Below the pieces are notes generated by a model. The model worked only from the letters and a program-made list of their open reading frames with translations, was not told the DNA's origin and ran no database searches. Shown here in pieces: positions 2,781 through 47,604 of a DNA stretch of 64,000 nucleotides. Every line of letters begins with the position of its first letter. The stretch's first letter is position 1. Origin of the DNA: Botryllus schlosseri (Eukaryota); NCBI GenBank assembly GCA_051294905.1, contig CM119371.1, forward strand, positions 10,170,001-10,234,000. The letters run 5' to 3'. Position numbers and translations under genes: made by a program.

Positions 2781-2956
2781 GTTATCATGGCCTTTCTTAT
2801 AATAATGAGTTCTCGATTTTGAACTTTGAAGCATTGCTATCGTATTGTAGATACACATCAGGTCAGAAGTCGATATAGTAAATAGTACATGTTTTAACGC
2901 CGGTGGGGTTGGTACACTTGCGTAGAACTAGATAGAGTTAAACGAATGGTACATAA

Positions 2957-22234: not shown

Positions 22235-24508
22235 CCCTGCAGACAACTTCCAGGATGTACATGGAAGAGTTTCCGGCATTGCCAGTATAAGGAAGAGTGA
22301 AGATGAAGAGGTGCCACCGGGTGAAGCGAAGTCCTATTTAGATGAAGAATCGAAATCGCAAACGGGCGAATTTCCTGGTCATCTGAGTTTCATGTTAGAT
22401 GGAGTTCAGGACTTAACGGGGGAGCAGCAGTCGGCAGTGCGGGATCTCTTGACTGAATTCCAGGATGTTTTCATTGGGCCGGATGGGAAACTCGGACAGA
22501 CGCAAGTTTTGCAGCATAGAATCACTCTCACCACTGAACAACCTGTCAAAGTACGTCCCCGGCGCATGGGCTGGGAGAAACGCAAGTTGGCTATTCAAGA
22601 AGTGGAAAAGCTGAGAGAACAGAACGTGATAGAGGAGTCTGATTCACCTTTCAATGCACCAATTATGCTGGTTCCTAAAAAAGATAATTCCTGGAGAATT
22701 GTCCTGAATTACAGGAAACTGAATAGCGTAAGATATTCTCGATTCGTTGGGAGGCGCCTCGTGGTTTTCATGTTTGGACTTGGCAAGCGGTTTTTTCCAA
22801 GTCACAATAGATCCTAAGGATCGCCCCAAAACAGCCTTCAGTGTTCCAGGTCATAACCATTACCAATTTACTGTACTTCCCATGGGATTTGCAAATTCGC
22901 CAGCTCTGTTTCAGAGATTGATGGAGAAAGTTCTTGCTGACGTATTGTGGTCGCGAGCCCCGGTTTTCCTGGATGATGTTATGGTTTTTGAAAAAACTTT
23001 TGAGCACGAAATGGAGAACCTCCGACACGTTTTCTCCAGGATACGCACGGCGGGACTAAAGTTCAGACCAACTAAATGCAGGTTGTTTCAAAGACGTGTG
23101 GAATATCTTGGCCATGAAATTTCAGACGAAGGGGGTAGCTGCAGTGAGACAAAGATATCGTCGATTCGTGACTGGCCGGTTCCTGGGAAGTTGAAGGATC
23201 TCCAAGCTTTCCTGGGCACCGCAAACTATTATCGGCAGTATGTGAAGTCATTCGCGTCCATTGCTTACCCACTGACACATCTAACAATGAAGAATGTGCC
23301 TTTCAACTGGGACAATCAGTGTCAAAATGCCTTTGACACCTTGAAGGAGTTATTGACGAAATCTCCGATACTGTCTTACCCACGTGAAGATGGTGAAGTG
23401 TTCATTCCTGACACTGATTGCAGCGCTTTTGGTGTGGGTGCGGTTCTCTCTCAGAAGCAAGAGGGTCTTGAGAGGGTAATCGCTTATGCAAGTACTACTC
23501 TTAACAAATCACAGAGGAATTACTGTGCTACATATCGAGAGCTTTATGCTGCAAGATGGGCAATTGAGCATTTCAGGCATTACCTTTGGGGGAGACCATT
23601 TATTTTGAGGACTGATCATTCTTCGTTGCGTTGGCTTCTCACTTCGAGCGAACCCCATGGGCCTTTGGTGGCAAGGTGGATTGCGTTTCTGAGCAGCTAT
23701 GATTATACGGTGGAACATCGTCCAGGCGTGTTGCATGGGAATGCTGATGGTCTCTCCAGGAAGTACCGTAGACGCTGTGAGCGAGAGGAATGCTCGGACT
23801 GTTGTGATTTTGCAGAACCTCCAGCAACAAGATGTGCTGCGGTGATTGTAGGGAGCGTATGCCCATGAGCAACTGAGTAAGTCTGCTATCCGCCAGTCCA
23901 GAAATTTCGATCCATCTGTTAAACCCTTGATTTTGGAAACTGGTAGTTTGTGCTGGTACTTCCATCCACCCGCAAAGTCAAAACTGAGGTCGGGTTGGAC
24001 CGGCCCACGGCTAGTGTCAGAGCGAATCGAACAATTCCTTTATCGGATAAAACATGTGGACTCCGAACGATATCGCATTGTGCATGTGGATAATTTACAT
24101 CCTTACATAGATGATGTTAACTCACTTCCAGCTCTGGAAAACGATTCAGTCAGTGACACCGACATTGCTGTGTCGGAAGAGATACCGAGTGTCCTGCCCG
24201 ATCGTAGCAGACAAATGCCCTCACGATTTAATGACTAAGTTATGTGAAAGTGTTCTTTTTTTACTCGCTTACTGCTTGTTGCTTGGTTATTGCTTGTATT
24301 TTGTTGTGAGAGTCTACTTGAGTAGCACCTCTCAAAATTGATGGGAGGGTGATGTAGCAGCCCTCGTGCGCCCCCTATCTGGGTTGGCGCCCTTGGGATG
24401 CTTGAGTGATTTCATGGAGCAGCTTCCTCTTTGTGTTTGTCACGTCGCTGCTGGGTTGTTGAGTACGACTGAGTGAATAAACTTCCTATCTGAGCAAAGG
24501 CCTCTACA
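22235..24508 (+). mobile_element. 5'-truncated, internally deleted Ty3/Gypsy LTR retrotransposon (RT, RNase H, integrase C-terminus, PPT, short 3' LTR)
   Basis: RT motifs PIMLVPKKDNSWR, LDLASGFFQ, LPMGFANSP and FLDD; RNase H motifs DTDCSAFGVGAVL, RELYA, TDHSSL and NADGLSR; GPY/F-like tail WTGP..RIVHVDNLHPY. Purine tract gggagggtga precedes a putative LTR tgtag..aataaa..ctaca (24353-24508). Frameshift at ~22745; integrase core absent. Confidence 0.92.
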
Positions 24509-25817: not shown

Positions 25818-26115
25818 ATACTCGACCTGCCGTCTCTAACTCGGTTCCGTTTCAATTTATTTTCCGTACTGGCTTATCAATTCAGGAAACAACAACAACA
25901 ACAACAACAACAACACTGCAATTACTTGAGCAACGACCGCGAGAAGGATCATTCGTGCCGATACGGAAGGAAGAAACACAGAGAGAGATGCGCCGTGAAT
26001 ACCTATTTCTGAGAAAATAGGGGATGATATAATGCGACAAATTCTATTTATTTACTGACTGAGAAGCATAAACTTCACTGCTGTCATCATTTACCAGTTG
26101 CTGTACAATGCACAT

Positions 26116-26734
26116 TAGGGCTGTTCAAAAATAACTTTTTTTCCTGAATCTTGCTGGTTACTTGATTAAATCGTTAGGTTGCCTTAAAAAACGACGCACA
26201 CCAAATTTGAATTCATTCCGACAAATATTCGCGGTTTACGTAGAGTTTGAAAATTTTGGATTTGCCCATAAACGCAAAAAAAAAAATTTCTCAAATTTTT
26301 TTGCCAACCCCATGAAATTGTTGGGCTGTCTTCAAAAACTATGCAAAACAAATTTGACTCAATTCCAAGCCGTAGAAGCGGAGTTATTCCAGTTTTTCGG
26401 TGATAATTCTTGGATTATCCACCAATCAAGGATAATCCCAGAATTATCGAATAAAAACTGAAATAACTCCGCTTCTACGGCTTGGAATTGAGTCAAATTT
26501 GTTTTGCATAGTTTTTGAAGACAGCCCAACAATTTCATGGGGTTGGCAGAAAAATTTGAAAAAAAAAATTTTTTGCGTTTTTAGGCAAATCCAAAATTTT
26601 CAAACTCTACGTAACCCGCGAATATTTGTCGGAATGAATTCAAATTTGGTATGCGTCGTTTTTTAAGGCAACCTAACGATTTAATCAAGTAACCAGCAAG
26701 ATTCAGGAAAAAAAGTTATTTTTGAACAGCCCTA
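26116..26734. mobile_element. 619-bp near-perfect palindromic (fold-back) MITE with hATm-like termini
   Basis: tagggctgttcaaaa..ttttgaacagcccta; perfect TSD atgcacat (26108-26115, 26735-26742). Arms are ~305 bp and meet near 26425. Confidence 0.92.
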
Positions 26735-27512
26735 ATGCACATATTTCAAACGGTTACCATTGTATCAGTTAAGGATGCATCTTTAAGTACTAGTAGTCGC
26801 TTTCTTTAATTTTCAGCTTGGCGTTGATCAGAGGCACGATATTGGTTAGTAGAATTGCGGGATGAATGATTAGTAGAATGACTAAATCATTTGAATTTTA
26901 GGTTATAGCATTTGTTTTACCCACAAGTAGCCCGCCTATATATAGTAAGTCACTGCATGTCTTCATTGCCTATACGTCTCATGACATTCATAAAACACAG
27001 CATCAGCAACCGCTCATTGAACATCTGTGAGCTACAGTATGATATGTATCTCATACATCTTACATATACTCATATTATATCAGTGGTTCCCAAACTGTGG
27101 TGTGCGTACCACCAGTCTTTCTCAAAATTCTCTCAGGTCGTACGCGATAAGCATCAATTCAGCGGATCGAGATATTAATGAATTTTACAATTCGATGAAG
27201 TCAGATCTGTACTAAATATGAAGGCTGCAAAATCAAGCATAACAAAGCTTACTTGATTAGGCTGTCGATGTAAAATCGGACAACGTCATATATCCCCAAA
27301 TTTTAAGACCCTTGCATTGATCTATCATAGAGTGGAGCATGGACTGGAGTCGGGCTGGATATCCGGCTTAATTTTCGACCAGAGCTGGTTCGGAGCCGGT
27401 TCAGTACTTTTTTCGATACGGCCGAAGTCGGATCGGGGCCGGAACAGTACCTTTTACTAAGAATATGATAGCCTTACCCTCGTCTGCCCTAGGATCCGTG
27501 GTTGAAGTACGC

Positions 27513-28492
27513 TTGGGATGGTGTGAACGCGAACCTTTTTCAAAGGTTCTGTGTGAACGCGAACGTGAACCTCATGACGTCACGTGACGTCATATTGCTA
27601 ATTACAACCCTACATTTCAGTAAAGTGATAGCCCATACTAATGCGCACGATAACTAACGACTCGGGCCACATGATGCCACAATGCCGACGTTTTAAACGT
27701 CGCCATAGGTATCAACTGCGGGGGCAATAAAATGATACAATAATCCCATAAAATCAATATCTTCCGTCGTTTAGCAAACAATTTGGACGAGGACTTACAA
27801 GGGGATATAAGCTTTCGCCTTAACGGTCCAGACCAGACGGGACAATACATTGGGCGTCTGAGTATTGCTACGTTAATATTGAGCAGAGTGTAAAACTGGT
27901 TTCTATATTTGCTAACGATATGACCTCATTAACAAGTTATGCAGCAGTAGCCAACACCCAAATTGCACGGAATTGGTTTTTATGATACAATAAACATATG
28001 AATTCAATATTGACCCTGGCCCCGTATGCCTGCTAAATTTGTTAAATCAGACCACAATATCAATTTCATTGATTGGTTGAATAAGCATCATTCACTGACT
28101 ACCTAGAGGTAGTGGATTTCACTCTTGATGTTGTGTCATTTTGGGTCAAGCTCACAGCTAGAAGAGAGTCACTAAATATTCACAAACGGAAAGCTGTATA
28201 TTTCGAGCGAACTTTTGTAGCAAAGCAAGCAAAATATTCAAGATTGTCAAGGTCCATAATCGTTTAGTGTTGATATTGTTATGCTTCTATCGACATGCAC
28301 AGAGTGGCCCGCAGTCGAAATGCAATAAATTTCAACCAAAGATGTTACAATGTTCAAAGTGAAAATATTAATATGTGAAAAAGGTTCACAGTCCAGAACC
28401 TATACCAAGGTTGATTTGTGAACGTGATCCTCTAAATGTCTGAGGTTCACACAGAGAACGCGAACGTGAACCTCACGTACACACCATCCCTA
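27513..28492. mobile_element. hAT-type MITE, TAGGGATGGTGTGAAC family
   Basis: ttgggatggtgtgaac..acaccatcccta; internal homology to 2957-3940 and 55751-56761. Confidence 0.8.
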
Positions 28493-28529
28493 GTACCTCA
28501 GCAAACACTAGATGTCTTTTGAACCTGTC

Positions 28530-28938
28530 AGGATATCTTTTTCTTGTCCAGCCAGGTTCAAATCATATCTTGTGCATGCTTTGTGCTGAAGCACGACTTA
28601 AATATATCTTTTTCATCTCCAGTCATGTTCAAATCATATCTTTGTGCAAACCTTGTGCTGAAGCACGACTTAAATATATCTTGTTCTTGTCCAGTCAAGT
28701 CCAAATCGTATCTTGTCCATACCTTGTGCTGAAGCACGAATTAAACTATATCTTTTCTTGTCCAGACAAGTCCAAATCATATCTTGTCCATACCTTGTGT
28801 GCTGAAGCACGACATCAATATATCTTGTTCTTGTCCAGTCAAGTCCAAATCATATCTTGTCCATACCTTGTGCTGAAGCACGACTTAAATATATCTTGTT
28901 CTTGTCCAGTCAAGTCCAAATCATATCCTGTTTATACC
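28530..28938 (+). repeat. ~71-bp tandem repeat, ~5.5 copies (left subterminal array)
   Basis: Unit catatcttgtccataccttgtgctgaagcacgacttaaatatatcttgttcttgtccagtcaagtccaaat. One more partial unit (cataccttgtgctgaa) lies at ~32325, beyond the BEL insertion. Confidence 0.9.
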
Positions 28939-28943
28939 ATAGC

Positions 28944-31900
28944 TGTAAATGTCTGTCCCGATTCCGTTGTGCGTGAAAGCGTAAATAGGTCACTCTCGAA
29001 GCCACGAGCTGTGACGGCACAGTTAGTCTGCGACGCACGTGTTCTCAGAGCCCGCATATCGAGGTCGGCGCGCTCGCGCAGCAGACGTAAGATAGACAAT
29101 TGGCTCCATTTCGCTTCATTTATTCTTTCTATTTCTTATTGAACCGCAGTATCATTGAACCTGGTAAATCTACAAGTTTCTGACCACTATTACTACTATT
29201 TGGCTGTTCTGTGCTAGTAAAGAAAGCTCCTTGGATCTGCGTGTGTGATCAGGATTGCAAGTGTACTCAGAGCGGTCATTAGTCAGTGACTAGTGCGTAC
29301 AACAGGAACTGTAAGCTGTAGCGTCGACTCCAATCAAGCACTATACCAGCGTGTCTTGCAACAAGTCGTTGCAGCGACCGCTACAGTCAGAAACTTTACC
29401 AGTTACAAAGTTGAAAGTCGGAGAAGTTGAAAGTAATGGAAGCTGCAGCAACGCCAGAGAAAGCTGACTGCTCAGCCGTACCAAGTCAAACTGTGGCAAC
29501 GTCTGAGACGAGTGCTGACTGCCCAGCTCCACCAAGTTCGGAATATGTTGAAGACGTACGTGGAAGTGTCAAAAATGAAGTTGTGGACCAGAGCCCCGCG
29601 GAAAGCAAGTCAGTGGGTTCTGATGATCCAACCAGTAGTGTCAGCACTTTGTTCCACGGATTCGATCAGAGATTGACTGAACTTGGCAACCAGTTCCGTG
29701 AAACAAAAGGTGAAGTTGAAAGATGCATTGACGCAACTCAGAATGTTATGGCGCTATTCACAAATAAAGAAGAAGTGCGCGAAGCAATGAAACGAGTTAT
29801 ATGCCATCGAGATGAATTGAAGAAAATTACTGGAGAGATTGTTTCGAAGTTCGCCAAGAATACGGAAACAAATGAATTCGCCAATAGCATGAGGTCGGTT
29901 GAAATGAAATTTGAAAAAGTCCGGCAAGCCGTTACGGATTTCATCTGAAAATGGATCCGTCCGTAGCCGCGCGAGATCTGGAGCCGGCTCGAGATCGAGT
30001 TGCCATACACAAAACAGTCGCACCAGTCACAAACAGCAAATTCACGATCACCAAAAAGAAACAGCCGCTTTGAAAGCAAGACTTCAATTTTCGGAGCAAG
30101 AAGCTGAAATGAAAAAAGGTTAGTTAAAGATGAAGCGGAGATGAAAAAAAAAAGTTATTTGAAGATGAAGCAGAGATGAAAAGAAAGTTATTTGAAGATG
30201 AAGCAGAGATGAAAAGAAAGTTGGTTGAAGATGAAGCAAAGTTGTCGCAATTGGCTCTGAAGAGTCAAATTGCTGAAAAGGAAGCCGTGATCGCAGTTTG
30301 TGAGCGAATTGAAAGGGAGGAGAACCCCTTTGGTTGTGATGACGATGAAGATGTCGTACGTGAAGAACCAAGTTATACAGATATACGGTGTAAGGTTCCC
30401 GTATTGAATTCGGAAGAAAAGGTACAAAACTTCGTTATTAGTAACCCACACGTGTGTCCTGAAGTTGGGCAATGTAATGTCAAATCTAGTGAACCCGTAT
30501 CCTACGGCCCAGTTATTGATAAAACTCCCGTGCAAATGAACAATTTCCCACGTACCGAACCGGAAGAAACCGGCCGAAACACGTTTGTAAAGATGCCCGT
30601 TAATCATTCTATAGATATACCAATTGATCGTCAATACAACATGAAACCGTTGACGCGAATACCTGATATAAAAGTTTGTGTTTTTGATGGTGATGAAACT
30701 AATTATATGGAATGGGAAAATTCGTTTAAAGCCTTAGTTGAAGATAGAGTGTATTGTGTTCATGAAAAGATGAATTTGTTGAAACAACATCTTGGTCCGG
30801 GCCCGTTGAAAGTTGTGAAATGTTATTTTTTGTGTGGTACCGAGGAATCTTATCGAAAAGCAATAAGTGACTTGCGAAGTAGATATGGAAGTCCTGTCGT
30901 TGTTGGGCAGGCCTTTCTAGATAAATTGAAAGGTTGGCGTCATATAAAGGAAAATGATAGACTTCGGCTGCAAGAATTCTCTGATTTCTTGGAGCAAGTT
31001 TTTGTGAACAAACGGTTTGTGCCAGAGTTAGGCACTCTTGATTACTCGTCAAATCATGTTTACGTTGTGAAAAAGTTACCTCCGTCACTTATTGATAAGT
31101 GGCGTTGTAAAGTGTCAAAGTACAAGGCACAGATGAATGATGTAAATTGCTACCCCCCATTTGAGTATTTTGTGTTATTTGTGAGAGATCAGTCTGAACG
31201 TCGAAATATGCCAGAATTCAGAATGTTGGATGAAAACCGAAATAGTAATATCACGCAATCTGCTCAAAAGTATGGCCGTGATAGGCCATGTGTTTCATTT
31301 GGAACTAATGTTATGTCAGGCGAATATAATTGCATGTTTTGTGGAAGAAATGACCACCATATCCGAGATTGTGTGGATTTTGAGAATTTACCGTATTCTG
31401 AACGAATATCGTTTATGCGTGACAAGTTTTTATGTTACGGATGTGGTGAAAAGTTGTACTAGAACGCACCATGGTAAAGATTGTCCAAAACGCGTAATTT
31501 GTGTGAAATGTGGAAAGTTACATTTGACTAGCTTGCATCCATGCTCTGCTCCCGCTGTTTCGAATTGTATTGAAGTGTCCGAGTATAAGACTGTGGATGA
31601 TTGATGTTGTATAATTGGTGCTTTGGTCTCAGATTATCCCTGTCTGTTTTGCATTATTGCTATATGTTGTATGTTATTAGCATTTGCCTGTCTTTGTTGC
31701 CTGTTAGGGTCTATTTCTCCTTTGGTGTTCGATGTAGGCTAATGTTTGTAAGAGTCCGACACCCCGACGTGGAGCCACATTGTTTACGAAAATAGTTGTA
31801 AAGACATTTTGTGTTGCACAAAAATGTCCTTAAAAGGGGGAGTGTAAATGTCTGTCCCGATTCCGTTGTGCGCGAAAGCGTAAATAGGTCACTCTCGAAG

Positions 31901-32284
31901 CCACGAGCTGTGACGGCACAGCTAGTCTGCGACGCACGTGTTCTCAGAGCCCGCATATGGAGGTCGGCGCGCTCGCGCAGCAGACGTAAGATAGACAATT
32001 GGCTCCATTTCGCTTCATTTATTCTTTCTATTTCTTATTGAACCGCAGTATCATTGAACCTGGTAAATCTACAAGTTTCTGACCACTATTACTACTATTT
32101 GGCTGTTCTGTGCTAGTAAAGAAAGCTCCTTGGATCTGCGTGTGTGATCAGGATTGCAAGTGTACTCAGAGCGGTCATTAGTCAGTGACTAGTGCGTACA
32201 ACAGGAACTGTAAGCTGTAGCGTCGACTCCAATCAAGCACTATACCAGCGTGTCTTGCAACAAGTCGTTGCAGCGACCGCTACA
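28944..32284 (+). mobile_element. Gag-only BEL/Pao LTR retrotransposon with both LTRs
   Basis: 442-bp LTRs at 28944-29385 and 31843-32284 (TG..CA; I counted 3 differences); 5-bp TSD atagc; PPT aaaagggggag. Gag has DUF1759-like FDGDETNYMEWENSF and three Cys/His knuckles (CMFC..H...C, CYGC..H...C, CVKC..H....H). Frameshifts at ~29945, ~30120-30150 and ~31450. No pol. Confidence 0.93.
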
Positions 32285-33092
32285 ATAGCAATTTGCAACG
32301 TAGCTACGTAGTAAATTGCTATGTGCATACCTTGTGCTGAACCACAACTTTTCTTGGCCAAATTTTGTCGAATGCTGAAAATATATTTGTTAGGAATATC
32401 AAATTCGATTATTGCTTCCTATTATGATAGAGTGGTGTTTATAAATGTACAGTAGATTATATTGAACTTTTACTCTCATGGGACGATTAATCACCTGTGT
32501 CACTACCGTATGTTCCACCTAGTGTCACGCTCTTTCTTGCAATTTTGCAGACTAAAATTAAATATCATATTAGCCCGCATCCTCGCGCTCCGCCACCTCC
32601 GCTGCTTTCGGTTGTTGGGCTGTATTTGATTGGAATTGGTCGGCTCCCAAATTTTGGAAGGAAATTTGAAAGTCCGCAGAATCCGGCTGGAGAATTTCCG
32701 GTTCTGCGTCCAAAAAACTTCTGCCAAAATCATGATATCGTATTTAAGATTATAATTAAGAATGTTGCCAAAATCCGACTGTCGAAATAAATTCAGAATC
32801 CGCATCCAGTCCGGCTGAAATCCTGCTACGACCCCGGCTTCTGATCCGGAGTGTAAACGAGAGGACATTTCTCCCTTGCGAGTTCACATAAGTTTCGGCG
32901 CGAAATACTGGCAGACAAAGCGCTCTCGTAATGGAGGCTTACAGCTACGCAGTCGTATGTTAGGTTTAGTTGCGTTCTGGAATTAATCGTGGTAAATTAA
33001 GGCTCAACCAACCATATTCCTTCAGAGGATTACTGAAAACTGAACTGTAGATGGTAATTTATATATGCTTGATACGAAACATAGGTATATAG

Positions 33093-35682
33093 CAGTGGCG
33101 GCTCGTGACAATATCGGGTGGTGGGGCAAGGGCCGCAAGCGACTTGTTATCAATATGACGTCACAGTAGCGTTTTTCAACGTTCATGATGGCCACATGAA
33201 TTTCCCGTAAACAATGATTTTTAACGTAGGTGCCGCGAGAGGTTTGCCGGTGGCGTGACTTGAAGTGCGGTAACAAATGTTTTATTCATTGTTTTTTATT
33301 CAAATGATTATTTTACAAAATGTACGCGAACTAAGAATCGTTCCCATGCCACGAATCAATCATCAGGTTATCCTTAGTAGCATGCGTTATGATTTCGTGG
33401 TAGAGATTACGCAAGCGCCGAGTAAGACTATACCAAAAATACACAGACCAACTACCTACAAAGAGCATTCGCATGACACCTTGTGGTGTTTAAATCGTTC
33501 CATGCTCAGCAATTATGTAAAGTGCTGCAGCGCCTCCGACCCGATTTGTATATGGATTCTCGTCCCGAAAGCGAGTCAAATCGATTTGCCCTCGTCCGAA
33601 AGTGTTTGGTACACGATCCTGATGCGTTACGACCAGGGGATAGGCAATCAAAGCGGTGGCACCCATAAACGTAAAACATTATAAAAAGCCAGCTGTTATC
33701 CATGGAAGATTAATTACGAGTCTGCCTGCCATCATTCAAGCAGGAATCAAAGCATTGTGTTAAATTGAAATGCGAGCACATATCGCATTAAACAATTTCA
33801 TGAATAAATTATTTCATCTTGATGAATTTTTCACTTTTTTTCCATAGCCATAACAAAATATATCGGTAAATTAACTGTCAGTGTGCCTCGAGTAATAAGG
33901 ATGAAAACCACTCACTTTTCCTTAGCCATAGACATGGTTGAGTTACCTGGGCTCACTTGATTGAAATTATTCGGAAAGAACATGATGTGTACAGTCGTCC
34001 GCCCACACACGAGTGCGCTTTCCTCCGGCGTACGATTGGATCAATGGGCAATTTCTAGGCTGATACGGACCTAGTCGCTTTACCTCTAATTTTTGCTCTA
34101 AAGGCAGCTGGCTAAACGGCGTACGGAGCAAAGATTCAACACGATTCGTGTTCGCACTTGACCTGACTACTTATCTGCAGAAATGGAAATGACTATAAAT
34201 CGAGAGATTGCGTATGCCTAACTGGAAAGGTCAACGAGTTCCGACACATACGCAATTGTTATCTCATAGATTGGACAAGGAAATGTCATATTGAATCCAA
34301 AACATCATTCTGAAGAACTACGGATAGCAGCCTCGGAAATTCGGTCCCGGTACAGCTTGGGAGATTCTGGCCTTGAGGCTGGAGACTGTCACACGACACA
34401 TACGGCTTACGGTCTATAGTGTCTATATGTCTGCTGCAAAATCGCCTTCGGAAAATATATTACCGAATAAATACGTGGATGAAAGCCGAAAACTTGGTAC
34501 ACTGTTACATGAAATCATCGAGAAGTATAGCCTCATGACCGTTTTCGGTATGGTACACTGTCAAAATTAATACGAACAGATCAACGCCGAATTTTGCGTA
34601 ATATTTACTGAGGAATCGGCTGATCAAGCGATCAGCTGTTAGCCGCCATGGAAAACGAAACAGCTATGACAGGGGTTGTAATTGTGAGCAAATGGCCCGA
34701 AGGCCACCATTCCACGGTGAAATTGACATTGGAGAATATAAAATAAAACTAAATATTTGAATGCAAACCGAGGATGTTAGTAAACTGTTTCATGATATCA
34801 TCATCTCATCACCTATCTCAGTATGGAACACAGATACACCGGCTTTTGCGTGAAATCCGCAATGCGTTAGGTAGGCTAAGTGTCAGATCAGCGCACATCT
34901 CTACCATACTCGAACTTAATAACGAAATTGCTGCCCTAATCATTGAGTGTCAACCTTGAGACTTGGCACAGCGTTCGATACTAAAATCAAGACATACCAT
35001 GTAAAAGTTCATGACGGATCTAGCTAAGGAGCATCGTTAAAATCAATGGAGACCAATACCGGCTTTGCGTAAAATATGTTTGCGATACATGACCGATCAG
35101 CACACACTCGACTTTGGAAACGGAATTACTACCCTAAACTTTGAGTAGAAACCCTGAAACTTAGGACAGTGTTAAATACCACCATCACGACATGACATAC
35201 CAAGTTTCAAGAATTATCATGGTGTGAAACACCATCAAAATCGACCTGTACCAGCAACGGTCGACTCAACGCATATCACGGTATCCGAGTTCAGATATAG
35301 ATACGATTGTTACATCACACCTTAGGGGCGAGCAAGCATATTTGCCACGGTTGTTCGGCCATTTTACGAATAGGAGAGAGTAAAGCAACGTTTCTTAATT
35401 GTGCGCAGCTTTGAGAGAATAGATAGTGAAAGCTTGTTATGAGCGCTACCGGGGCAAGCCCCGGCTAGGCATTCACAAAGCGAAAACACAGAAGAGAATT
35501 CGATTTTCGCGGAGACTTCGCTATGTATGGGCATTTGCAAGCGAAAGCACGAGAAGAACGCGGGTTTCGCTGTGATCTCGATATATATTGAGCGCTGTGC
35601 ATCTATAAATGGTTAAATTGTTATTGAACAGAATTTTAGGTGGGGCAATGCCCCAGTTGCCCTATAGGACGAGCCGCCACTG
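33093..35682. mobile_element. 2.6-kb non-autonomous hAT-type element
   Basis: TIR cagtggcggctcgt..acgagccgccactg; perfect TSD gtatatag (33085-33092, 35683-35690). Confidence 0.88.
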
Positions 35683-36155
35683 GTATATAGTGTATGGTAT
35701 AATGTCACAAAGTATAGAACTTGGTTTGCACTTTAGCGAATATCATATAAGCTATATTGTGACAGTGCTGGATTATATAATATCATCAGATGGTGGTCGC
35801 TAAAATCATTCATTGTGATCGAATGTTCTTGTACTTTTGTCTATAATAGTGTAGTGGGAGCTCAGCTACAACGTGGTAATGCCCAGATATAAAATAAGAC
35901 GGGGGAAGCACAGACGTAGGCAGTACCAGAAAGAGTGGCAACGGTTCAAGCGAGCTAGAACCGCCGATTTGACGGGACGGATCGTTTCATCATTATCAAG
36001 TGAAATATGACACAGGCAATTGGACTCTGTACAAAATACGTATCAAATGCTCATCCGGTAAGTCAACTCATAATTTGTGAAGGTTTACCGTTACTCAGCA
36101 CCAGTGTTGGGATGACTTGAATCATGACAAAAATGAGACTAGCATGTAGCTATAC

Positions 36156-36470
36156 CAGTGATTCCCAACCGCGGCCTCGAGCTAGCCGTCTTGCGTCCCC
36201 CACAAAAATTTAAAGAAATCGATTTATGATATAAAATAAAATTTATATTTATAAAATTCTCTTGCTTAGCTTGGAGTCTGGAGTTGTTAATTAGGATTGC
36301 AGAAAAGTTCTGAGTAGAGTGCTAATGTTATGTCATTACAGTATATAGGTATTGATAACTAATCATTGATTAATTATTGATCTAAAGCAGTCACGAATTC
36401 GTGCGGCCCCAACTATATACTCTGAAATTCTAAATTTGGCCCTGACACCGAAAAAGGTTGGGAACCACTA
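36156..36470. mobile_element. hAT Charlie/Buster-type MITE
   Basis: cagtgattcccaacc..ggttgggaaccacta; TSD agctatac/agctatat. Confidence 0.75.
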
Positions 36471-36824
36471 AGCTATATATACAGTTACTTGCGTACAGTA
36501 TTTCATTAGCAGTTCTATGTTTGCGTGTGCGATACAATATTGTTTTTTCAAGTTTGTGCGAGTTTTCAAATTTGAGTAATTCTAGATCTAGTTGCGCTGT
36601 TTACAAATCCAGTAGTTTGATAAATCTGGAAACTTACCATCTATATTATCCATCTGTTTTAGATTTATGGGTCAAGGCCTTTCGTGATATGAGGGCAGTT
36701 GCAGACAATAGTAGCTTGCCCTCCGCTTCAGATAAGGACCTACAACGGCCTAACCGAAAACGTCAGCCGCCAAAAGATTTTTTGACAAGTCCATGTCATC
36801 TGATAATCAAGGTATAGCCTACAC

Positions 36825-38165
36825 CAGGGGTGTCAAACTCAACTTGCGTCGCGGGCCGGATTCAAACCTTCAGAGCACTCGCGGGCCGGACCAGTCAAAT
36901 GATTTTAAAATGACATCTCAAAATCCATTCCATTGTTTTTTACTTGAATACTCAATATCAAACCTATATAGTCTACATATTAATAATTATAATTACGCTA
37001 TATCATGTACCATAGGGTTCTATTCTATTAATGCTACTCAATGGAAGCAGAATCATTTCATACATTATACCTTTACTCAATAAAGACTACAAGTTGCGGC
37101 TTGCTACGAGAGGTCGATTAGTGTTATACTTAATCGACGGTGACAAATCTCGCAACATGCGAAGCTGTCAGGAATAGACAAAAGGAGAACCTTACACTGT
37201 GTTACCGTGATAGGCCGGTGCTATTTAGTACTATCATTACTACGTTTTCACTCTACAGGGGTGTCAAACTCAACTTGCGTCGCTGGCCGGATTCAAACCT
37301 TCAGAGCACTCGCGGGCCAGTCAAATGATTTTAAAATGACATCTCAAAATCCATTCCATTGTTTTTTACTTGAATACTCAATATCAAACCTATATAGTCT
37401 ACATATTAATAATTATAATTACGCTATATATTGTACCAAAGGGTTCTATTCTATTAACACCTTTATTCGAAAACAATGAAATTGGCAAAATTACGATGAT
37501 TGGCCGGTTGAAGAATTATATGAACTGCTAAAATAGCGGTTCTGCCGACAATATATGTTGGCATATTGCTATATGATTACTTTGTTATAGTCGTAATCTG
37601 ACAATATTGTTCTGTATATGCATTGGGAGGAATACAAGCGATTTAACCGTAAACTTAGGCGTTGAAATTCCGTTCATTATTTTTATATCGCGACTCGGTT
37701 TCTCTCGAGGCCGACGGGCTGTTAAGTCATAAGCACAAAATTATATTTTTGTGTCATGATTATATTCTCGATGTAACCTGCATAGACCGATTTCTGACTG
37801 ACGTTTTCACTGCTGCAAATAACTATTTTGTTGTCGATTTCCCCATAAAACACTGAACTTAACTCACTGTGCATTTTTTGTCCTCTCAGAACTGGGTGTC
37901 AATGGGAACGACTTGTTGCTGATGGTGACTACAGTGTAACCACAACACCAATGTCACGTGGTTATAATATAGCCTATGGAACATAGTCAACATTTTCTGT
38001 TTTGAGGGATTATATTAATGAAAGTACTTCGTACTAAAAATCTTGTTGACATTGTTTCGAAATATGCTGGGTATTACAGCCATTTTTTCAGAATCGCGTC
38101 GCGGGCCGAATGAAACCGTCTGGCGGGCCGGATGCGGCCTGCGGGCCGGATGTTTGACACCCCTG
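36825..38165. mobile_element. hAT Charlie/Buster-type MITE with an internally duplicated left end
   Basis: caggggtgtcaaac..gtttgacacccctg; perfect TSD gcctacac; gcgggccgg subterminal motifs. The first ~200 bp repeat at 37256-37457. Confidence 0.9.
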
Positions 38166-39018
38166 GCCTACACTGTTATTCTGCCTAATATGTTATACGC
38201 AGAAGTGACATATGTATAACTTTCATACTTTGTAGATGATGCTGTTCCTTCAAAGAAAAAACGTAATCCAAGTATTCAGACACAAGGCATTCCTATACCA
38301 ACTCCAAGAGTGCGGTGACCTCCTGATTCTGGCGATGAAAGTGTGACAAGCAAGAGTGCTCTTGTTAATGATGCTTCGAATGCAAGTTTGCCATCATCAA
38401 ATGAGGAGAGTGTTCAAGAACAGCATGATCCCAACATTGAATGTAGCGGCCAGTTGCAGGGAATCAACCAATGCAGTAAGCTCCTAACACTTTGATTCAT
38501 TCTCGAATTTAGGCAATAGAGTCGCTCTATTTTCCAGACGATCCTTCATTTGTAAGCAATGTTGAACTGCAAAATTCTGACTGTCAACAACAAGGCCTAT
38601 CACAAAGTAATGGTAAGTTTATCGCATATGATCAATCCAGTTTTCTTGAATTCAAATAATTTTTTAGCTCCTCCATGTTCTTCATCAACTCCAACATCTG
38701 CACACAGTGACCACTCTATATATTTCTCTGATGCGTAAAGACATCAAAGACACCAAGTTGCAGATGAACCAGATGATGGACCTCAGCTCCAAGCAGATGA
38801 ACCAGATGATGGATCTAATTAAAGGTCACATCATCAACGACTCAAAAAATAAACACAGTACAACAGCCCCAATCTTGCTTGAAGATCTTATTGAAAACCC
38901 CTGTCAAACCGTATCTCAGCTTGAACAACTGGAAAAGAACTTGACTGACGGCGATTGCAAGAAATCTGAACTGGTATGATTTTGTCGATTAGAGCAAACT
39001 TAGCCGGAGTATCTAACC

Positions 39019-39694
39019 CAGGGGCAGGCAGCATACGGCTCGCGAAGTGATTTTGTCCGGCCCGCCGGCAGTTTTCTGTCCTACATGATAATGCCCCGCC
39101 CCAGTTTGCCGAGATTCCCCACTAATTCCTTACTACGTCAAATTTTAGTGACTATGTTATTATATTATACGTGTATGCGCAGCGTTGCGAGAGTGGAGCT
39201 TACGCGTAAGTTCGTTGAAGCGAGAAGACTTGCATTATCGGCATTGACGATGCAATCAAACCTAATGTGGTCTGTGGTAATCATGATTTTTGTCGACTAC
39301 AATGGTCAGCAGGCTGATATTTCCTATTTTTGATTCCGTAACCGCCGACTTGTAGCACGGCACACTTCTAGGTTTTTGTAAGGCACCGCTTATGCCAGGG
39401 GCGCCAACTCAAAATGGGTTGCAGGCCACTTTTCGAATTTGGTAGAGGACGCAGGTCGCATGAATTCAGTATCGAGATTGCCTACATGACAATGTTATTC
39501 TCAATTCCACATTGTATTCGCCATTATCGGCGAGAAATGGCTTTGAAGTGACATTGCTGTCGTTAAAATACATTCATTAAATACGATATATTCCTTGTGG
39601 ATAAATGGACGAATAGCATCGATTCAGCAATCCGGTGCCCAAGTATTTAATTTTCCTATATCCGGCCTGCCGACTGGAGAAGTTGCCCACCCTG
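39019..39694. mobile_element. hAT Charlie/Buster-type MITE containing a SINE fragment
   Basis: caggggcaggcagc..gttgcccaccctg; perfect TSD atctaacc. Confidence 0.75.
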
Positions 39695-42179
39695 ATCTAA
39701 CCTCTCGTCAAGATCAACGTTCCATCAAGTTATTTGATGTTCATGCAGGCGCGTAGCCAGAGGGGGGTTTGGGGGTATAATCGTCATTTATGCATGTACT
39801 TTACCATGATGAATTGATGCTATATTAGTGAATTCGAAAAATATCGAAACCCTACTTATTTTTTGAGCTGATCTAGTTATTTTTCATTCTGGTACACACC
39901 ACTATCGTAAGGCAGAGCCATTTGTATTTTGTACTACAGGTATCTGCTTTGAAAGGACATCACGGTGAACAATTGGCTTCAACGGTCAGAAATATCATGA
40001 CAAGCATAGCTGTAAAAGATGTGTGGCAATTGTTCAGCCTAAAAGGTCAAAGAAGCAAAAATGGACAAAAAAGAAGTTTTCAAAATTTTAATATTTACAA
40101 GACTATTACACGTAAGTTGTTACTGATATTACAATCGAGATTACAAAACCCTCGATAACAATGCCTTCGAGAGCATTTTTACTGAGTTAAAGTATTTTGC
40201 TTTCCCTTCTTGTGAAAGATCATCGCAGCTAAATTGCAAATAGTTGCTGACCACACCGCCTTATAAGCCCTCGTTTGAAGTCATCTTCTACTGACATTGC
40301 TGACATGGCAAAATCACAAACAAGTGCGTTGATTGCGCAACTCGGTGTTGAGTCTGGAATGTTTTGAAATACCAATTTTGACACTATGGGGTGATCACAT
40401 TCGAGAGAGATTGTTACCGCTGGCGGAGATTCCGATTTGCCGCATTGTTTTGTAATGCAGCCCCTGATCTACTTATATTATCTTTGAAGGAGCATGTAAA
40501 GTGGCTAATCCTACGGCCGAGAGTACAACAATTACAACCAAAGTGGGACGATTTCTAACTGTTATTGGAGCTTGCAAGGTAATTTTGTTTATGAATCTGA
40601 CGTCTGTGTGACAGCTGCGTTCTTTATCATATCATTTGACAGTAAGTGAATCGTTGCTACCTCCAGGGCCGCTACCATTCATCTTCAGAACACTATACCA
40701 GTGGTTCCCAAACTTTGACGTGATGTAATTTAAAAAAAATTTAGAGTCATTTAATTTTGTCAAAATTGTTGGTCTTGCTTGCATAAATGTTTGATCATCT
40801 AGTTACACTTGCTCAGATTTAGCGGTGGAACCAATGTCTCCTAAACTTTTTTGCCAATAATCCGTCACTCATTTCAAACTCCTTTCAATTCACATTTCTA
40901 CACGGGAAGCAAGTTCATCCTCAACTGGTCGCATTCGTACCGCGTGGGGGGCTCAGATTGCTATTGCCTGACCCATGTTCCCTCAAAGCTGCACTGCGCA
41001 CGTGTGCAATTGCACAGTGCTTAGTTGGTCTCTGCGCACAGAAAAAATCTGAAGTGATGTCATTTTTTTTAGTCGTTATGTACTACTGTGAGTTGGTGAG
41101 TGTGTGCAGAGTCGTCAAAAATTAGAGGGAGCATTGGGTCGGCTATTTCGGTGGCGAACAAGATGCATGGCAAATATGGCTGAATTCCAACGTGTAGATG
41201 TCAAATCATTGAGATACAAAATTAGGGATTTGAAACTTCGCTGGTATATATATTAGGTACATTTTACAGCTAGCTATAGTATCCCGGTCACCAAAGAAAT
41301 GTTTGAAGCTGGCCCAGAACGATAACGATGAGTTATACGATCGTCCAGGGCCATCACACTTCAAACACCCAATTAGAGGAGCTCGACTGAACCCAAAATT
41401 ACTTGGTTTGTCGTTTGTTGAAGTAGATTTTTGTCGTGCTTTGCGCGATTTTTTGTCCCTGTTGGTCTACATTTAAATATGATTAGTAAGATGAAAAGGT
41501 GCTTATAATAGAGAAATATGCAAATTGGTGGTGGCGATTACCACACATTGAAAAGGACTACGACTCTACTCTGTGGTTAGAGATGGGTCTCAAGAACATT
41601 TTCAAACCCGAAAATGGGCCACGGCCAAAAGATGGCTGGGAACCCCTGGTTTATTAGCTTCTATATGTTGGAATTAAGCCAAATTTGGCGCGCAGAGTTA
41701 AATCGACAATTTCGTCGAAGTAGATGGTAAAGTTTGACTTGGCTGTCACACTCCACCAAGTTCGTATTGACTTCCTAAAGACGGTTCGGAATCCTTGGAT
41801 GAATGTGACTTGACATGACCGTCCCACATTACTCACAAACAAACACATATAATGACCATTGCTCTACTGCTAATCAATCAAAGTAATCAATTCATTTATG
41901 TTATAGGACGACGATAAAGGAAAAAACAGGAGCAAGACTGTTATCGAGGAGGCAGAAGTATTGGCTGAAGTGATTGCACAGTTCTGTATCAAGGCCCAAT
42001 TCTTGCTAACATATTTTCTTCATCCATGTTTTTTTTCGTGTTTTGAACTGGTACAATACAGAACAAAAAGCCATACATGATTTGTAAAACTGAGGATTCG
42101 TATTCGTTCATGTGTGAAGTGCAGCATATAGCAGGTTTAGCCAACCAGGGTTCAGGGTCACACAGGGTCGAATTGTACA

Positions 42180-42400
42180 AAAAATATCTTAATAGGATAT
42201 CGTTGAGGATGTTTATCAGGATATCTTTGAGGATCTCCATCAGGATATCTTTGAGGATGTTTATCAGGATGTCTATCAGGATATCTTTGAGGATGTCCTA
42301 CAGGACATCTTATATATATCCATTTCTGTCGACAAATGTATATATTTTGCACTTCATTGAAGGACATCTTTTGAACTCATGGAAGATGTTTAAAAAATAT
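42180..42400 (+). repeat. 12-bp-period aggatatctttg/aggatgtttatc array (right subterminal repeats)
   Basis: Repeated aggat(a/g)t(c/t) units immediately inside the gtgtttgctggg terminus. Confidence 0.85.
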
Positions 42401-42825
42401 CTTTAATAAGTTTTGTGTTTGCTGGGACACGCCAAGGTGGCTTAGATACCGCGTTCAACGGAATATCTTCAGTCAGATTTATGTCAAAATCGGGCTTGGT
42501 GTATTCTATTTCTGTCGTGTACGACATATTTCCTTCAGAACATCGAATGACAATGACCAGTATAAAAAGTACGATCTCTGCGTGATTGCTGGAGCGTGAT
42601 GTGTTTGTGGAAGTTTCATTACGGTGGCGTTCTGAAGAAAACGGCTGCGGCCATTTTTTTTCGTTTTGCCCTTCAATTTGAGATCACATAATTTTTAGAG
42701 TGCAGTGCCCCTTTAAAGTGAAACTTTCCTGGAAATAAACCGCATGCTATTACTAAGTCCAAGTTGGCGTAATTATTTCAGATAATGGAAGGGTTTGATC
42801 ACTGAGTTTTTAATGACATGTTAGC

Positions 42826-42944
42826 TAGGCTTACCATATTTCGGAAATGAAAAAAGAGGACACTTTTTCAGAAATTTCAGTCAAGCATAACTGGAGAAGA
42901 ATTCTCAAAAACAGGTAAATTTCACCCGCTTCATGATCGGATGA

Positions 42945-42979
<35 letters not shown>

Positions 42980-43298
42980 TCATCACTTTCACTCAGAGCT
43001 CAAAAACACGGTTTTCACTCCACATTACCAGGTGGATGACTAAAAAAAAAAAAAAAAAAAAGTCTTCTTTTCGCTCAGAGCTGCAATCACCACTTTTCCC
43101 TCCGAAATACCCGCCGGAGCTTCACTTCTGCGCTAATTTGCGGCATATCACTCGCAATTTCCTCTAAATCTGACCAAAATTTTCAAAAAAGAGGACAAAA
43201 TCTCAAAAAAGAGGACAAAAGGGCGTCCTCCGAGGACACTTTCAAAAAAGTCAAAAAAGAGGACAAATCCTCTTAAAAGAGGACGTATGGTAAGCCTA
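42826..43298. mobile_element. hAT-type MITE (TIR TAGGCTTACCATA, GAGGACA repeats)
   Basis: taggcttaccata..tatggtaagccta; perfect TSD atgttagc; contains two poly-A tracts in a short internal duplication. Confidence 0.88.
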
Positions 43299-44862: not shown

Positions 44863-47604
44863 GTAGAATGACTAATTGATACAGGAGAATATGTATTACC
44901 GTTGTGCAAAAGAACAATTTTTAGGCTTGACAAACTGCTTTTTTGAGAAACAAATATTCCGCACCAGGTCATGTTAATATTGATAGAATGACTGAGAATG
45001 ACATGGGGGCTCTTCATCGTCAATTAGCCTATCCATTTATGCGCAGTATAAAATTATAGAAAACTATAATTGTTTCCCATCAAATAAAATATTCAAGGGC
45101 TTTTAGGGGTATAAATATTTTCTGAACAGGCAATCAGGCAAAATGTGATATTCGTAATCAGCAACCTCGAAAACCACAGAAACGGCTCTTTCATTTTTTA
45201 CATTTTGTTAACCAGTGTAATTATTATCGGAGTTTTTCGGACCGGATCAAGGTCATATCTAGGATACGGCCTTGTAGTCGTACCGGAGTCAGACCAGAGC
45301 TTTAAAAACAGGATTGGAGAAGGACCAGAGAATATGTCGATCCACTCCGGGAGTGGCTGAACTTTACTAGTTACTGCACCTTACTTTTCGTGAGCAGTTA
45401 GTATCAAATTCAGGATCCTCCTAATATCAATATCAATTATTCACATGCTGTATATAGGCGAGTGCCATGCATCAGAACAAGAGTCGTGAGACACGTTACA
45501 AATCTATTGGAGGAGTACAACCTCAAATATCCGATTTCCATAAATATTATATTACGACCGATCTGAGAATACTTTTTAGACTCGATTGCACAAAACCGAA
45601 AAATATTTCTCGCTTAGCGCGGTCATTTTAGGCATAAGAGATCCGCGCAACTCGTACGCGAAATATCAAGCGGTATAAACGTATCCAATAGTCAATCACT
45701 GAATAATCTGGTATTCTTGGCAAACGGCGTATGAAGGACACTGACGATTTTTATGCTGTAGATTGTACATCTTAGGTGGTACGGGAACGCTGTATAAAAC
45801 ATTAAAAAATGGAACACGGGTAACCAAAGTTTGGGCAGCACTATATCTAAGGTTGCACTTAAAACAAAAATGAATTCATGGGCCTTGTTTGGAAGATTTT
45901 TTTATTGATTCACGAAACCTTAATTATGGCGTCACAGTGCACTGACATTGCCAATTGAAACTGTAGGGTAAATATGGGGTAAATATCACACCTTACCGGG
46001 GTATGTACCGATGTGGTGACCATGTATGGCTCCACCTACGCATTTTTCTATACCACCTTCCAGACTAACCAACACGCAAAATGGCGAATAGATGCAATTT
46101 TTGAAAGATATTCCGTTACCGTGATACAGGTGTTTCGTTCAGTTTTTATGACAATTTCACTGGTAAAAGTGATACAGACTTATCTTAAACTACGCTATAC
46201 TTTGCACAATACAAGGTTTGTCATGTAAATAGCGTCGCTGGAAAAACTGTTAAGTAGAAGTAATGCAGAGACGTAGCCAGTAAAGTAAGTCGGATTGAGA
46301 ACGTCGAAAAGTAGAAGTAGGCTACTTTGCTACTGTCCAACTTCGAACTCGTAGGGGTGGCTGTTGGAATAAGATTAAGGAAGAGTAATTTGTTGAGACA
46401 AGCCTCCATTCACCCATGATGTCTAGTCTATGCGGCCGTCGGTAAGTGCCAATGGTCGACAACTAGTGACATATTCCTCATATATTCTGTGCTTTTTGCG
46501 TTGTCTGATAGAGAAGCATTTCTTCAACCGATGAGACCAAAACACGTATAAATATGCATTACGAATTACTGACTTGTAAATGATCTAGCAAGGGTTGGAG
46601 ATGGAATCTGAATTTCGAAGGAGGTGGGTTTGAGTTTGAAACGGGACGGCTTCTGACCCGCAAGACCCTGGCAACGTTACTGTTAGTAGTGATGGCTGGA
46701 AGAAAATCACACCACAGAACACAAGTATCACGTTTCATGACAAACGACGATACGTCATGTTCTCTAGTTGTTGCTCTACAACAATATTTCAAGTAAAATG
46801 CGCAAATAGAACTAGAACTGCTTTCCAAACTATGCAACCAGAACTAGTCAAAACCACTTGTTAGTTTACCGTGACATAACTAGATCTAAAATTTGTACAA
46901 GTCTGCTGTGGCCAATTTTTGACTCATACACTGAAAACGACTGTACTGTAGTTTGTCAGCATAAATCAGATACAACTGTCCCGCGTTAGTTCTTGCTCTG
47001 ACAGTTTCAACGAATGTATAACGACATTTGCATCTTTCACACGTATTCATCGAATAAGTGACCGCCATATGTTGTACGAGTCTTAAAAATTTGCACCGAC
47101 GGTACGCAATATTATGTAGCATAATAGTGACAGGCTTGTAGTAAAATAAGAACAATGTTCACGACTAGCAGTGAGATCTGCATAACAAGGTTCCGCTATA
47201 CCAATGCCTCTCGACGGATTTAAGCAGTGCCCGTTTATTTGAGAGAATGTAGTAGTTCATTTCGACGCCTTCCCATCTTACGATTCTATCACAAACTTCT
47301 GCAGTTCTGAAATGATCAATTAACGGAACAGCACATTTCAAACGAAATGAAACTCGATGTAATTCCTGTAAATGTTTTGGCAGGAATGATACAAGCATGG
47401 TTAACGATCCCAGTCTTGATGTTTGAGGTCGGTTTTTCGAGTAAATGATTTCTCTCGGATGTCGCATTCATGATTATAGTTGCCAGCATGTATATCCATA
47501 TGGCACTTGAGATCCCCTTCCCAGTAAATTTTTTCCCAAATATGTCACATTTACGAGTTTTAACGCCGGCATGTGTGTCCATATGACGCGTGAGGCTAGT
47601 CTTC

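Follow-up and report, generated by a model that had tools for sequence, protein, structure and literature searches.

Two genes, TnpD and TnpA, make up the working set of the maize En/Spm element, and the sites of TnpA are 12-bp sequences in subterminal position. The roles of both genes have been described (PMC1636069). In animals, CCC-type ends combined with a 2-bp duplication of the target site (TSD) have been published for the TRC/EnSpm elements (PMC1636069, PMC4298943); one such element of Hydra, Spongebob_HMa / EnSpm-4N1_HM, measures ~5.8 kb and is present in many copies (PMC4298943).

Here we analysed a 64-kb stretch of Botryllus schlosseri DNA (the window), in which positions 28497-42426 very probably represent a single copy of an animal CACTA/EnSpm transposon (TRC-type, CMC group) that is young, multi-copy and non-autonomous. 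We arrived at this reading because of its ends, the linkage of its gene in relatives, the lack of a transposase and the occurrence of ~99% identical sequence at repeat-like depth. In common with animal elements of this group, it has short terminal inverted repeats (TIRs) starting with CCC, subterminal repeats and a 2-bp TSD, the latter known from one copy. The element would belong to a known kind of animal cut-and-paste transposon, and it carries a second gene, of the DUF4806 family.

Ends of the element and its insertion site

The ends of the 28497-42426 element are real. The original prediction had described two repeat arrays that flank an inverted pair with AC on both outer sides and share a motif, and our analysis agreed: the inverted termini are identical at 11 of 12 positions, the mismatch being position 2 of the left TIR, with AC outside both (Table 1). 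The four occurrences of CAGGATATCTTT in the 64 kb fall one in the left array and three in the right array. With up to two mismatches allowed, AGGATATCTT was matched 16 times in the left 447 bp and 17 times in the right 327 bp, counted as strand-hits in which near-palindromic sites appear twice, compared with 1.6 per kb window-wide. Subterminal repeats are found at both ends, a GATATC-cored motif is common to the 71-bp and the 12/24-bp arrays, and the 71-bp array resumes past the BEL insert with a last partial unit. Exact end patterns had 0 matches in metagenome and genome contigs. A 17-nt end pattern gave seven viral-contig matches, which we read as chance; none had the partner end among the matches listed.

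Table 1. Features of the element and of its insertion site, in window positions.
Feature	Position	Strand	Remarks
Older hAT-type MITE	27513..28492		TAGGGATGG ends; 8-bp TSD family; right target duplication struck by the element
Left 2-bp target duplication AC	28495..28496		
Left TIR	28497..28508	+	CTCAGCAAACAC, preceded by AC; 1 mismatch to right end
Left subterminal array	28509..28943	+	71-bp unit x5.7 (28533-28938); ATATCTT / GATATC-cored motif
BEL/Pao LTR retroelement	28944..32284	+	442-bp LTRs, 3 sites differing; TSD ATAGC; gag-like frames broken
Element remainder	32290..33092	+	Non-coding DNA with the last, partial 71-bp unit at 32319-32350; transposase trace absent
hAT element	33093..35682		TSD GTATATAG; missing from deep contigs of three runs
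Exon 1	35878..36057	+	Start approximate; frame-broken; Tudor-like N-terminal domain family; GT donor
hAT MITE, intron 1	36156..36470		TSD AGCTATAC/AGCTATAT
Exon 2	36663..36811	+	In this copy the frame shifts close to the exon's end
hAT element, intron 2	36825..38165		TSD GCCTACAC; left end duplicated internally at 37256-37457; missing from deep contigs
Exon 3	38236..38475	+	Low-complexity linker; TGA 38316-38318 in this copy only
Exon 4	38538..38612	+	
Exon 5	38708..38973	+	DUF4806 region begins; CAG acceptor keeps frame, TAG acceptor at 38668 does not
hAT MITE, intron 5	39019..39694		TSD ATCTAACC
Exon 6	39940..40111	+	DUF4806/BEN domain core; profile E 2e-6
Exon 7	40490..40578	+	BEN domain end
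hAT-like ends, intron 7	40699..41649		Matching target duplication absent
Last exon, probable	41907..42080	+	In phase with exon 7; passed no homology test
Right subterminal array	42181..42403	+	12/24-bp period (42194-42311); AGGATATCTT motif
Right TIR	42415..42426	-	CCCAGCAAACAC on the minus strand, then AC
Right 2-bp target duplication AC	42427..42428		Then ACGC, completing the 8-bp MITE site

On its left the element abuts an older MITE with 77-82% identity to two other copies in the window, and its right flank completes the 8-bp site of this MITE. Because duplications made by the MITE family are 8 bp long (two copies of CTAGATAC at 55751-56761; GTACATAA/GAACATAA at 2957-3940), the letters are best read as a site GTACACGC on the right and a left copy, (AA)GTACGC, with one AC lost. 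The proposal that the element landed inside the MITE's TSD was thereby upheld and refined to an 8-bp duplication. The left duplication needs a 2-bp loss to fit, which counts against this arrangement.

The TIR match covers just 12 bp with one mismatch, the arrays differ in period, and 128 of 20,000 random 100 x 200 bp pairs from the window likewise matched in inverted orientation at 11 of 12 positions with identical outer 2 bp. Moreover, no contig of the sequencing runs examined spans both ends, a second copy with both ends was not seen in them, and the empty-site joint (28496 to 42429) was absent among the joints listed (best 15 of 1,122). These data could be accommodated if the interior were a real EnSpm-derived repeat and the named ends a chance or chimeric pair, with the true unit ending elsewhere or related fragments joined by a rearrangement. 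We consider this unlikely, as one rare motif is common to both arrays, the right flank completes the MITE site on the left, the spliced gene crosses the inserts and reaches within ~100 bp of the right array, and the contigs of run X16 across the interior have similar depths (39-45).

A damaged gene of the DUF4806 family

Once the nested inserts are excluded, the remainder of the element carries an eight-exon gene of the DUF4806 family that is damaged in this copy. Exons 5-7 scored 32.9 bits on a fish DUF4806-family profile, a value reached by 0 of 500 shuffles, and again by 0 of 500 when exons 5 and 7 only were shuffled; with exon 7 in place the profile score exceeded those of 495 out of 500 versions with that exon shuffled. 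On Pfam PF16064 (DUF4806) the exon 6 frame alone obtained 14.1 bits (E 0.063), below the curated cut-off of 25, and two of its three phmmer relatives, DUF4806 proteins, pass the PF16064 cut-off. One of the three, P0002, was dropped as an unrelated repetitive protein. A word-index search with exon 6 returned no homologue among 2 candidates, and no viral locus matched the DUF4806 alignment. At the other end of the gene, exon 1 scored higher on the N-exon profile (E 0.003) than any other of the 2,856 fragments of the window, and exons 1-2 had a weak profile score of 6.7 bits, which none of 300 shuffles reached. This second gene, the most informative part of the locus, had not been located by the original reader.

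A BEN fold was predicted for the fish homologue P0007, not for the window's own protein: the P0007 model aligned with BEND6 (Z 10.3, rmsd 2.2, 84 aligned), and ranks 1-5 were all BEN domains, with weak Foldseek E-values (0.3). The N-terminal domain had a weak Tudor match (Z 5.5, rmsd 2.4, 46 aligned), and the ESM Atlas clusters pointed to DUF4806 (0.87) and BEN (0.85), both under 0.9; we take these as leads only. On the strength of the homologue's model, the second gene probably encodes a DNA-binding BEN-domain protein. Pan et al. 2023 is reportedly the source for DUF4806 as a BEN subtype. The work citing it calls DUF4806 by that name (10.1101/2023.12.06.570431). The cores to which BEN proteins bind are short and often palindromes (PMC11514455).

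Transposase linkage in related elements

A profile of 41 related transposases found nothing in the window (best E 4.3), and tblastn of transposases against the insert-free remainder gave a best E of 0.046; there is no transposase trace, and the element is therefore non-autonomous. The same profile had no sequence match among solved structures and lent no support to a GLP-like peptide in intron 1, a candidate that was rejected. No viral locus matched the transposase motif. In the EnSpm-like transposases of relatives, D, D, CxxC, HxxxH and E are invariant in 25 aligned sequences, and 15 of 16 match Transposase_21 or DUF4218, below cut-off.

These transposases are followed by a gene of the same family as the one found here. 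Across 121 transposase loci, a fish-only accessory profile gave 26 matches at E<=1, every one of them on the strand of the transposase. The refined N-exon profile, iterated and partly trained on the same loci, matched in 38 of 50 animal-contig loci with at least 1.5 kb downstream (29 of 38 families), and its matches (43 of 43) share the strand of the transposase motif and lie 0.8-2.3 kb behind it. The C-exon profile matched in 8 loci only, 2 of them not behind a transposase. An arrangement with the transposase in intron 1, first suggested by the chimeric protein P0008, was discarded, as the loci place the transposase upstream of exon 1.

Ends of the CCCA(G/A) type upstream of the transposase loci pointed inward in 7 cases and outward in 0, for a motif chosen post hoc, and the motif was present upstream in only 5 of 27 related families with at least 2 kb upstream. 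At loci L021 and L023 the sequences become identical at this motif. From terminus to exon 1 the distance is 2.9-4.2 kb in five relatives versus 1.44 kb here. None of the relatives yielded a right end that convinced us; a candidate in L023 at position 6680 (TA flanks) was rejected, being a weak match with no 8-mers common to the ends and no C exon inside. The candidate palindromes of the subterminal repeats are GATATC here, and GACGTC, CATATG and AACGTT in relatives.

With CCC-type ends, a 2-bp TSD, a gene family found behind EnSpm-like transposases elsewhere and no transposase trace, the locus conforms to the original prediction of one transposase-less CMC/EnSpm-like element. Because the element holds no transposase, its class rests on the ends and the accessory gene, and some Harbinger relatives make 2-bp duplications (PMC12730594); a single unit might thus have been mobilised by another 2-bp-TSD superfamily (e.g. 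a Mirage-like or PHIS-related group), with the BEN gene as cargo. This seems highly improbable to us, given that animal TRC/EnSpm elements are marked, in published work, by CCC ends with a 2-bp TSD (PMC1636069, PMC4298943), and that the gene family lies behind EnSpm-like transposases in relatives, five such loci having CCCA-type left ends.

Nested insertions and copies in sequencing-run contigs

The nested inserts, a BEL retroelement and four hATs each with its own target duplication, occupy 8.3 kb and leave a remainder of 5.6 kb. The BEL/Pao element shows a TG..CA LTR pair, a 5-bp TSD and a DUF1759 gag region (E 9e-8); pol was not seen within 28944-32284. An 8-bp TSD and short TIRs, as in hATs, are present in the four nested elements and the two other MITE copies, and not in the ends at 40699-41649.

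In contigs of three sequencing runs the insert-free remainder was ~99% identical (about 1.2% difference) and at repeat-like depth, contig depth being different from copy count. No loose end at 28497 or 42426 was among the loose ends listed (best 24 of 7,907). Run X21 was uninformative, with matches to short MITE ends only. The element had been predicted to have later absorbed the BEL and at least four hATs. All five inserts do have target duplications, but the hATs are not all late, because one X16 contig crosses from the 36156 hAT over its right junction, by 31 letters, while the deep contigs skip the 33093 and 36825 hATs. The 36156 hAT is probably carried by typical family copies; that at 39019, bridged by 21 letters only, may be in them as well.

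Many X16 contigs, including the BEL interior, have a depth near 40, possibly the single-copy depth, as would be seen if the DUF4806 gene, in single copy, belonged to the host or had been domesticated, and if the hATs that the contigs skip were simple allelic polymorphisms. We regard this as the least credible of the alternatives: in X15 the same interior contigs reach a depth of 2,600-3,100, versus 40-90 for other contigs of the region, and the gene, damaged as it is in this copy, has TIRs, a TSD and subterminal arrays around it.

Discussion

Our data are consistent with a parent laid out as left end, transposase, spliced accessory gene and right end, from which deletion of the transposase segment (about 1.5-2.7 kb) would have produced an element of roughly 6-6.6 kb. 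Such an element would move by cut and paste with transposase supplied in trans. This copy would have inserted at an AC inside the 8-bp target duplication of the old hAT MITE, duplicating the AC, and would then have gained the BEL and two hATs and suffered damage to its accessory gene. The accessory protein, a putative chain of Tudor-like N-terminus, linker, coiled coil and C-terminal BEN domain, would most likely be TnpA-like, binding at either end to the subterminal repeats with their GATATC core, and helping to assemble or regulate the transposition complex.

As transposon archaeology the nested stack is ordinary. What is useful is the second gene: it links DUF4806 proteins, which annotations usually list as uncharacterised host genes, to animal EnSpm transposons and offers, along with a predicted binding motif, a candidate for TnpA's counterpart in animals. 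Lineage expansions of DUF4806 have been reported in Hydra (PMC7642931) and in a beetle (PMC13270666). Tentatively, and with slightly less than even confidence, we propose that DUF4806, an animal domain of unknown function that is widespread and lineage-expanded, is for the most part the helper gene of EnSpm transposons with CCCAG ends; that its Tudor-like and BEN protein reads a family-specific subterminal palindrome and replaces the plant TnpA; and that a transposase-less family spread with the gene kept open, as a trans helper or a repressor of its autonomous parent. If this is true, hosts could draw BEN regulators from such elements as a mobile source. The DUF4806-EnSpm link was not found in the papers searched; Repbase entries may already record the second ORF.

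Among animal TRC/CACTA (EnSpm) elements, SmTRC1 of Schistosoma and those of Aedes and Tribolium have CCC termini (Aedes CCCAGTCAAC) and a 2-bp TSD, and further resemble this element in their internal tandem repeats, truncated copies and spliced non-transposase products (PMC1636069). The 28497-42426 element differs from them in holding no transposase, and whereas the short products of SmTRC1 are described as lacking detectable homologues (PMC1636069), the relatives studied here possess a separate downstream DUF4806/BEN gene. Spongebob_HMa / EnSpm-4N1_HM, likened here by its description, has the TIR CCCAGCCAACATTGAC, a 2-bp TSD and no intact transposase found, and an accessory gene is not among the features described for it (PMC4298943). 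The solved BEN folds of BEND6, Bsg25A, BANP and NACC1 match the model of the fish homologue; these proteins are host regulators, whereas here the BEN domain is transposon-encoded, with a putative binding site. The logic of two genes, the deletion derivatives and the presence of subterminal repeats at each end are shared with maize En/Spm. Plant En/Spm elements have CACTA ends and a 3-bp TSD, in contrast to the CCC-type ends and 2-bp TSD seen here, and the helper, a Tudor-like and BEN protein encoded downstream of the transposase in relatives, would be comparable to maize TnpA by its role.

Element boundaries and insertion site

The element begins at 28497 with CTCAGCAAACAC, preceded by AC, and the right end, the reverse complement of CCCAGCAAACAC, stops at 42426 and is followed by AC; these AC-flanked inverted ends agree with the limits 28497-42426 of the original prediction. 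Since 128 of 20,000 random 100 x 200 bp window pairs also gave an inverted 11/12 match flanked on the outside by identical dinucleotides, the terminal match is by itself suggestive, not decisive. Just inside the ends lie the two expected subterminal arrays (Table), in both of which a common near-palindromic motif, AGGATATCTT, is strongly enriched.

The element had also been proposed to have landed in the target duplication of the MITE at 27513-28492, and excising it in silico with one AC left GTACACGC at the right edge of this MITE, bearing out the proposal given one 2-bp loss. The left flank reads (AA)GTACGC, a mismatch that a single 2-bp loss on that side would explain. As excision restores the MITE site, the six bases past 42426 carry on the sequence before 28497; this match, which is not an empty allele, is in-window evidence arguing that both flanks were contiguous. 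The empty-site joint 28496-42429 was not among the 15 of 1,122 contig joints listed, and none of the contig pieces listed linked both ends. The window holds two further full copies of the MITE (77-82% identical), both flanked by 8-bp duplications, and GTACA at the MITE site is similar to GTACATAA, the site at which another copy sits. Ahead of each of two methyltransferase-like ORFs (87% DNA identity) stands the same hAT MITE end, both times at the same GTACATAA-type site; the MITE is therefore older than the ORF duplication.

Nested insertions and order of events

The BEL/Pao element and four hATs account, with their duplications, for 8,300 bp, leaving a remainder of 5,630 bp. Directly past the BEL insert, which shows a DUF1759 match (E 9e-8), broken gag-like frames and no visible pol, the 71-bp unit of the left array picks up again. 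Additional hAT-like ends at 40699 and 41649 were without a matching duplication; these and the three hATs within the accessory gene are all intronic. Inside the element, 39745-39775, 39396-39420 and 41164-41694 hold lone hAT-like left ends and a 35-nt inverted pair, the latter interleaved with the hAT-like ends 40699-41649.

Feature coordinates in the window
Feature	Position	Duplication	Remarks
Left subterminal array	28533-28938		71-bp unit, 5.7 copies
Right subterminal array	42194-42311		12/24-bp period
BEL/Pao element	28944-32284	ATAGC	LTRs 442 bp, 3 differences
Nested hAT	33093-35682	8 bp	
Nested hAT	36156-36470	8 bp	
Nested hAT	36825-38165	8 bp	
Nested hAT	39019-39694	8 bp	
Small hAT MITE	42826-43298	ATGTTAGC	immediately right of element
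Methyltransferase-like ORF	3992-4972		within 2957-5296
Methyltransferase-like ORF	11414-12289		within 11109-12604
Fold-back element	20832-21348		near-palindrome, 517 bp
LTR retroelement	22188-23868		disrupted frames resembling reverse transcriptase/RNase H; assigned by eye from the translation
Fold-back element	26108-26742		313-nt arms, 94%, 9-nt spacer
C2H2 zinc-finger array	47482-49029 (-)		open; 84-bp unit x18, 474 aa
Transposase-like ORFs	61150-62578		decayed; first, weak Myb/SANT matches only; second, none

Contigs assembled from sequencing runs X1, X15, X16 and X21 were compared with the window over 27000-42900. Joints 33083>35682 and 36816>38166 leave out two hATs exactly (X1, X15, X16). 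The 36156 hAT is probably a family-wide insert, because one X16 contig crosses its right junction (31 letters). The BEL and at least four hATs predicted inside the element are present with target duplications, but their supposed late arrival probably does not extend to all of them. The 39019 hAT was entered by a contig over 21 letters only. Four X16 interior contigs (depth 39-45) carried 21 differences in 1,797 letters, and the matching X15 contigs reached a depth of 2,600-3,100 vs 40-90 for the other X15 contigs compared, a depth that is not a copy count; we infer that the element belongs to a young multi-copy family. The likely order would be the MITE (~20% diverged), the element (~1%), and last the BEL (LTRs 0.7% apart) together with two hATs.

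A damaged accessory gene and a probably lost transposase

The remainder carries a predicted 8-exon gene on the plus strand (~35878 to 42080), with GT-AG junctions of consistent phase provided that exon 5 takes the CAG acceptor at 38707. The DUF4806 match of exon 6 fell below threshold; this exon was the sole significant match among 2,856 window fragments to a profile of six fish relatives (E 2e-6); phmmer against 1.84 billion representatives returned three matches, two of them above the DUF4806 cut-off. Exons 5-7 scored 32.9 bits on the fish profile, a value equalled by none of 500 shuffles, by 4/500 when exon 5 alone was shuffled and by 5/500 for exon 7 alone. The window copy is damaged: exons 1 and 2 have broken frames, and exon 3 contains a TGA. 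This stop is private to the window copy, as position 38317 is C, with full depth, in X1, X15 and X16 alike. Contigs over exon 1 carry four gaps and those over exon 2 carry two; the reading frame of the family is only presumed to be open.

As anticipated, the element lacks a transposase: a profile of 41 related ORFs found no match in the window, nor did tblastn in the remainder. With the BEL and first hAT removed, the left end lies 1.44 kb from accessory exon 1, vs 2.9-4.2 kb in five relatives, a difference that fits the loss of a ~2.1-kb transposase frame.

The gene family behind EnSpm-like transposases

The fish protein P0008 is an annotation fusing the C-terminal half of a transposase with a DUF4806 gene. 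A motif from it led to at least 119 metagenome loci (flanks were taken for 80) and two genome-contig loci. Fifteen of the 16 transposases scanned matched Transposase_21 or DUF4218, all below cut-off; L009 gave no match. The contigs of this locus and of L008, binned in bacterial MAGs, carry animal-type EnSpm transposases and are probably host DNA. The 26 matches (E<=1) that a fish-only DUF4806 profile gave in 12,050 fragments were without exception on the transposase strand. An N-exon profile, built in two rounds on these loci, matched 43 of the 121 listed, always on the transposase strand and 0.8-2.3 kb behind the motif; among listed loci with at least 1.5 kb downstream it matched 38/50 (29/38 families at 85% identity), counts that are partly circular as the profile was refined on the same loci. 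Only eight loci matched the C-exon profile, two of them not behind a transposase. The refined profiles ranked window exon 1 (N-exon, E 0.003) and exon 6 (C-exon, E 2e-5) first.

Upstream of the relatives (1.4-3.5 kb), a CCCA(G/A)-type motif, picked after inspecting the loci, pointed inward seven times and outward never, representing 5/27 families with enough sequence. L021 and L023 differ in their flanks and become identical from such a motif, and family-specific repeated palindromes (GACGTC, CATATG, AACGTT) lie just inside the CCCAG left ends of L012, L018, L057 and L065. None of the relatives yielded a right end that could be relied on.

The predicted model of P0007, a fish protein of the same family (mean pLDDT 57.8, ~75 within the domain), resembled BEND6 (Z 10.3, with 84 residues aligned at an rmsd of 2.2); BEN domains took ranks 1-5 among 48,161 chains and came first in Foldseek, there with weak E-values. 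DUF4806 is termed a BEN subtype in a source crediting Pan et al. 2023 (10.1101/2023.12.06.570431). The N-terminal exon, modelled from 35 loci, gave a confident fold (pLDDT 89.9) with a weak likeness to Tudor domains (Z 5.5).

Mechanism and comparison with known systems

The element is real, well explained and mostly ordinary, its main point of interest being the link of DUF4806 with EnSpm. The accessible portions of the literature on DUF4806, BEN domains and EnSpm/CACTA held no statement of this link; Repbase, Abhiman 2008, subscription papers or supplements may hold one. Movement would most likely proceed by cut-and-paste, with an EnSpm-type transposase acting in trans and recognising the CCCAG ends. 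Maize TnpA has 12-bp subterminal sites. Similarly, the subterminal motifs are the probable binding target of the BEN protein; both this binding and a helper function are predicted by analogy with the roles of TnpA (PMC1636069). The cores recognised by BEN domains are short and often palindromic (PMC11514455). Since animal TRC/CACTA elements are defined by CCC ends and 2-bp duplications (PMC1636069, PMC4298943), and 2-bp duplications are also described for a zebrafish EnSpm with CAC ends (PMC13189230) and for ENS1_Cis (PMC6004678), the element is a previously undescribed non-autonomous member of the known animal TRC/CACTA elements.
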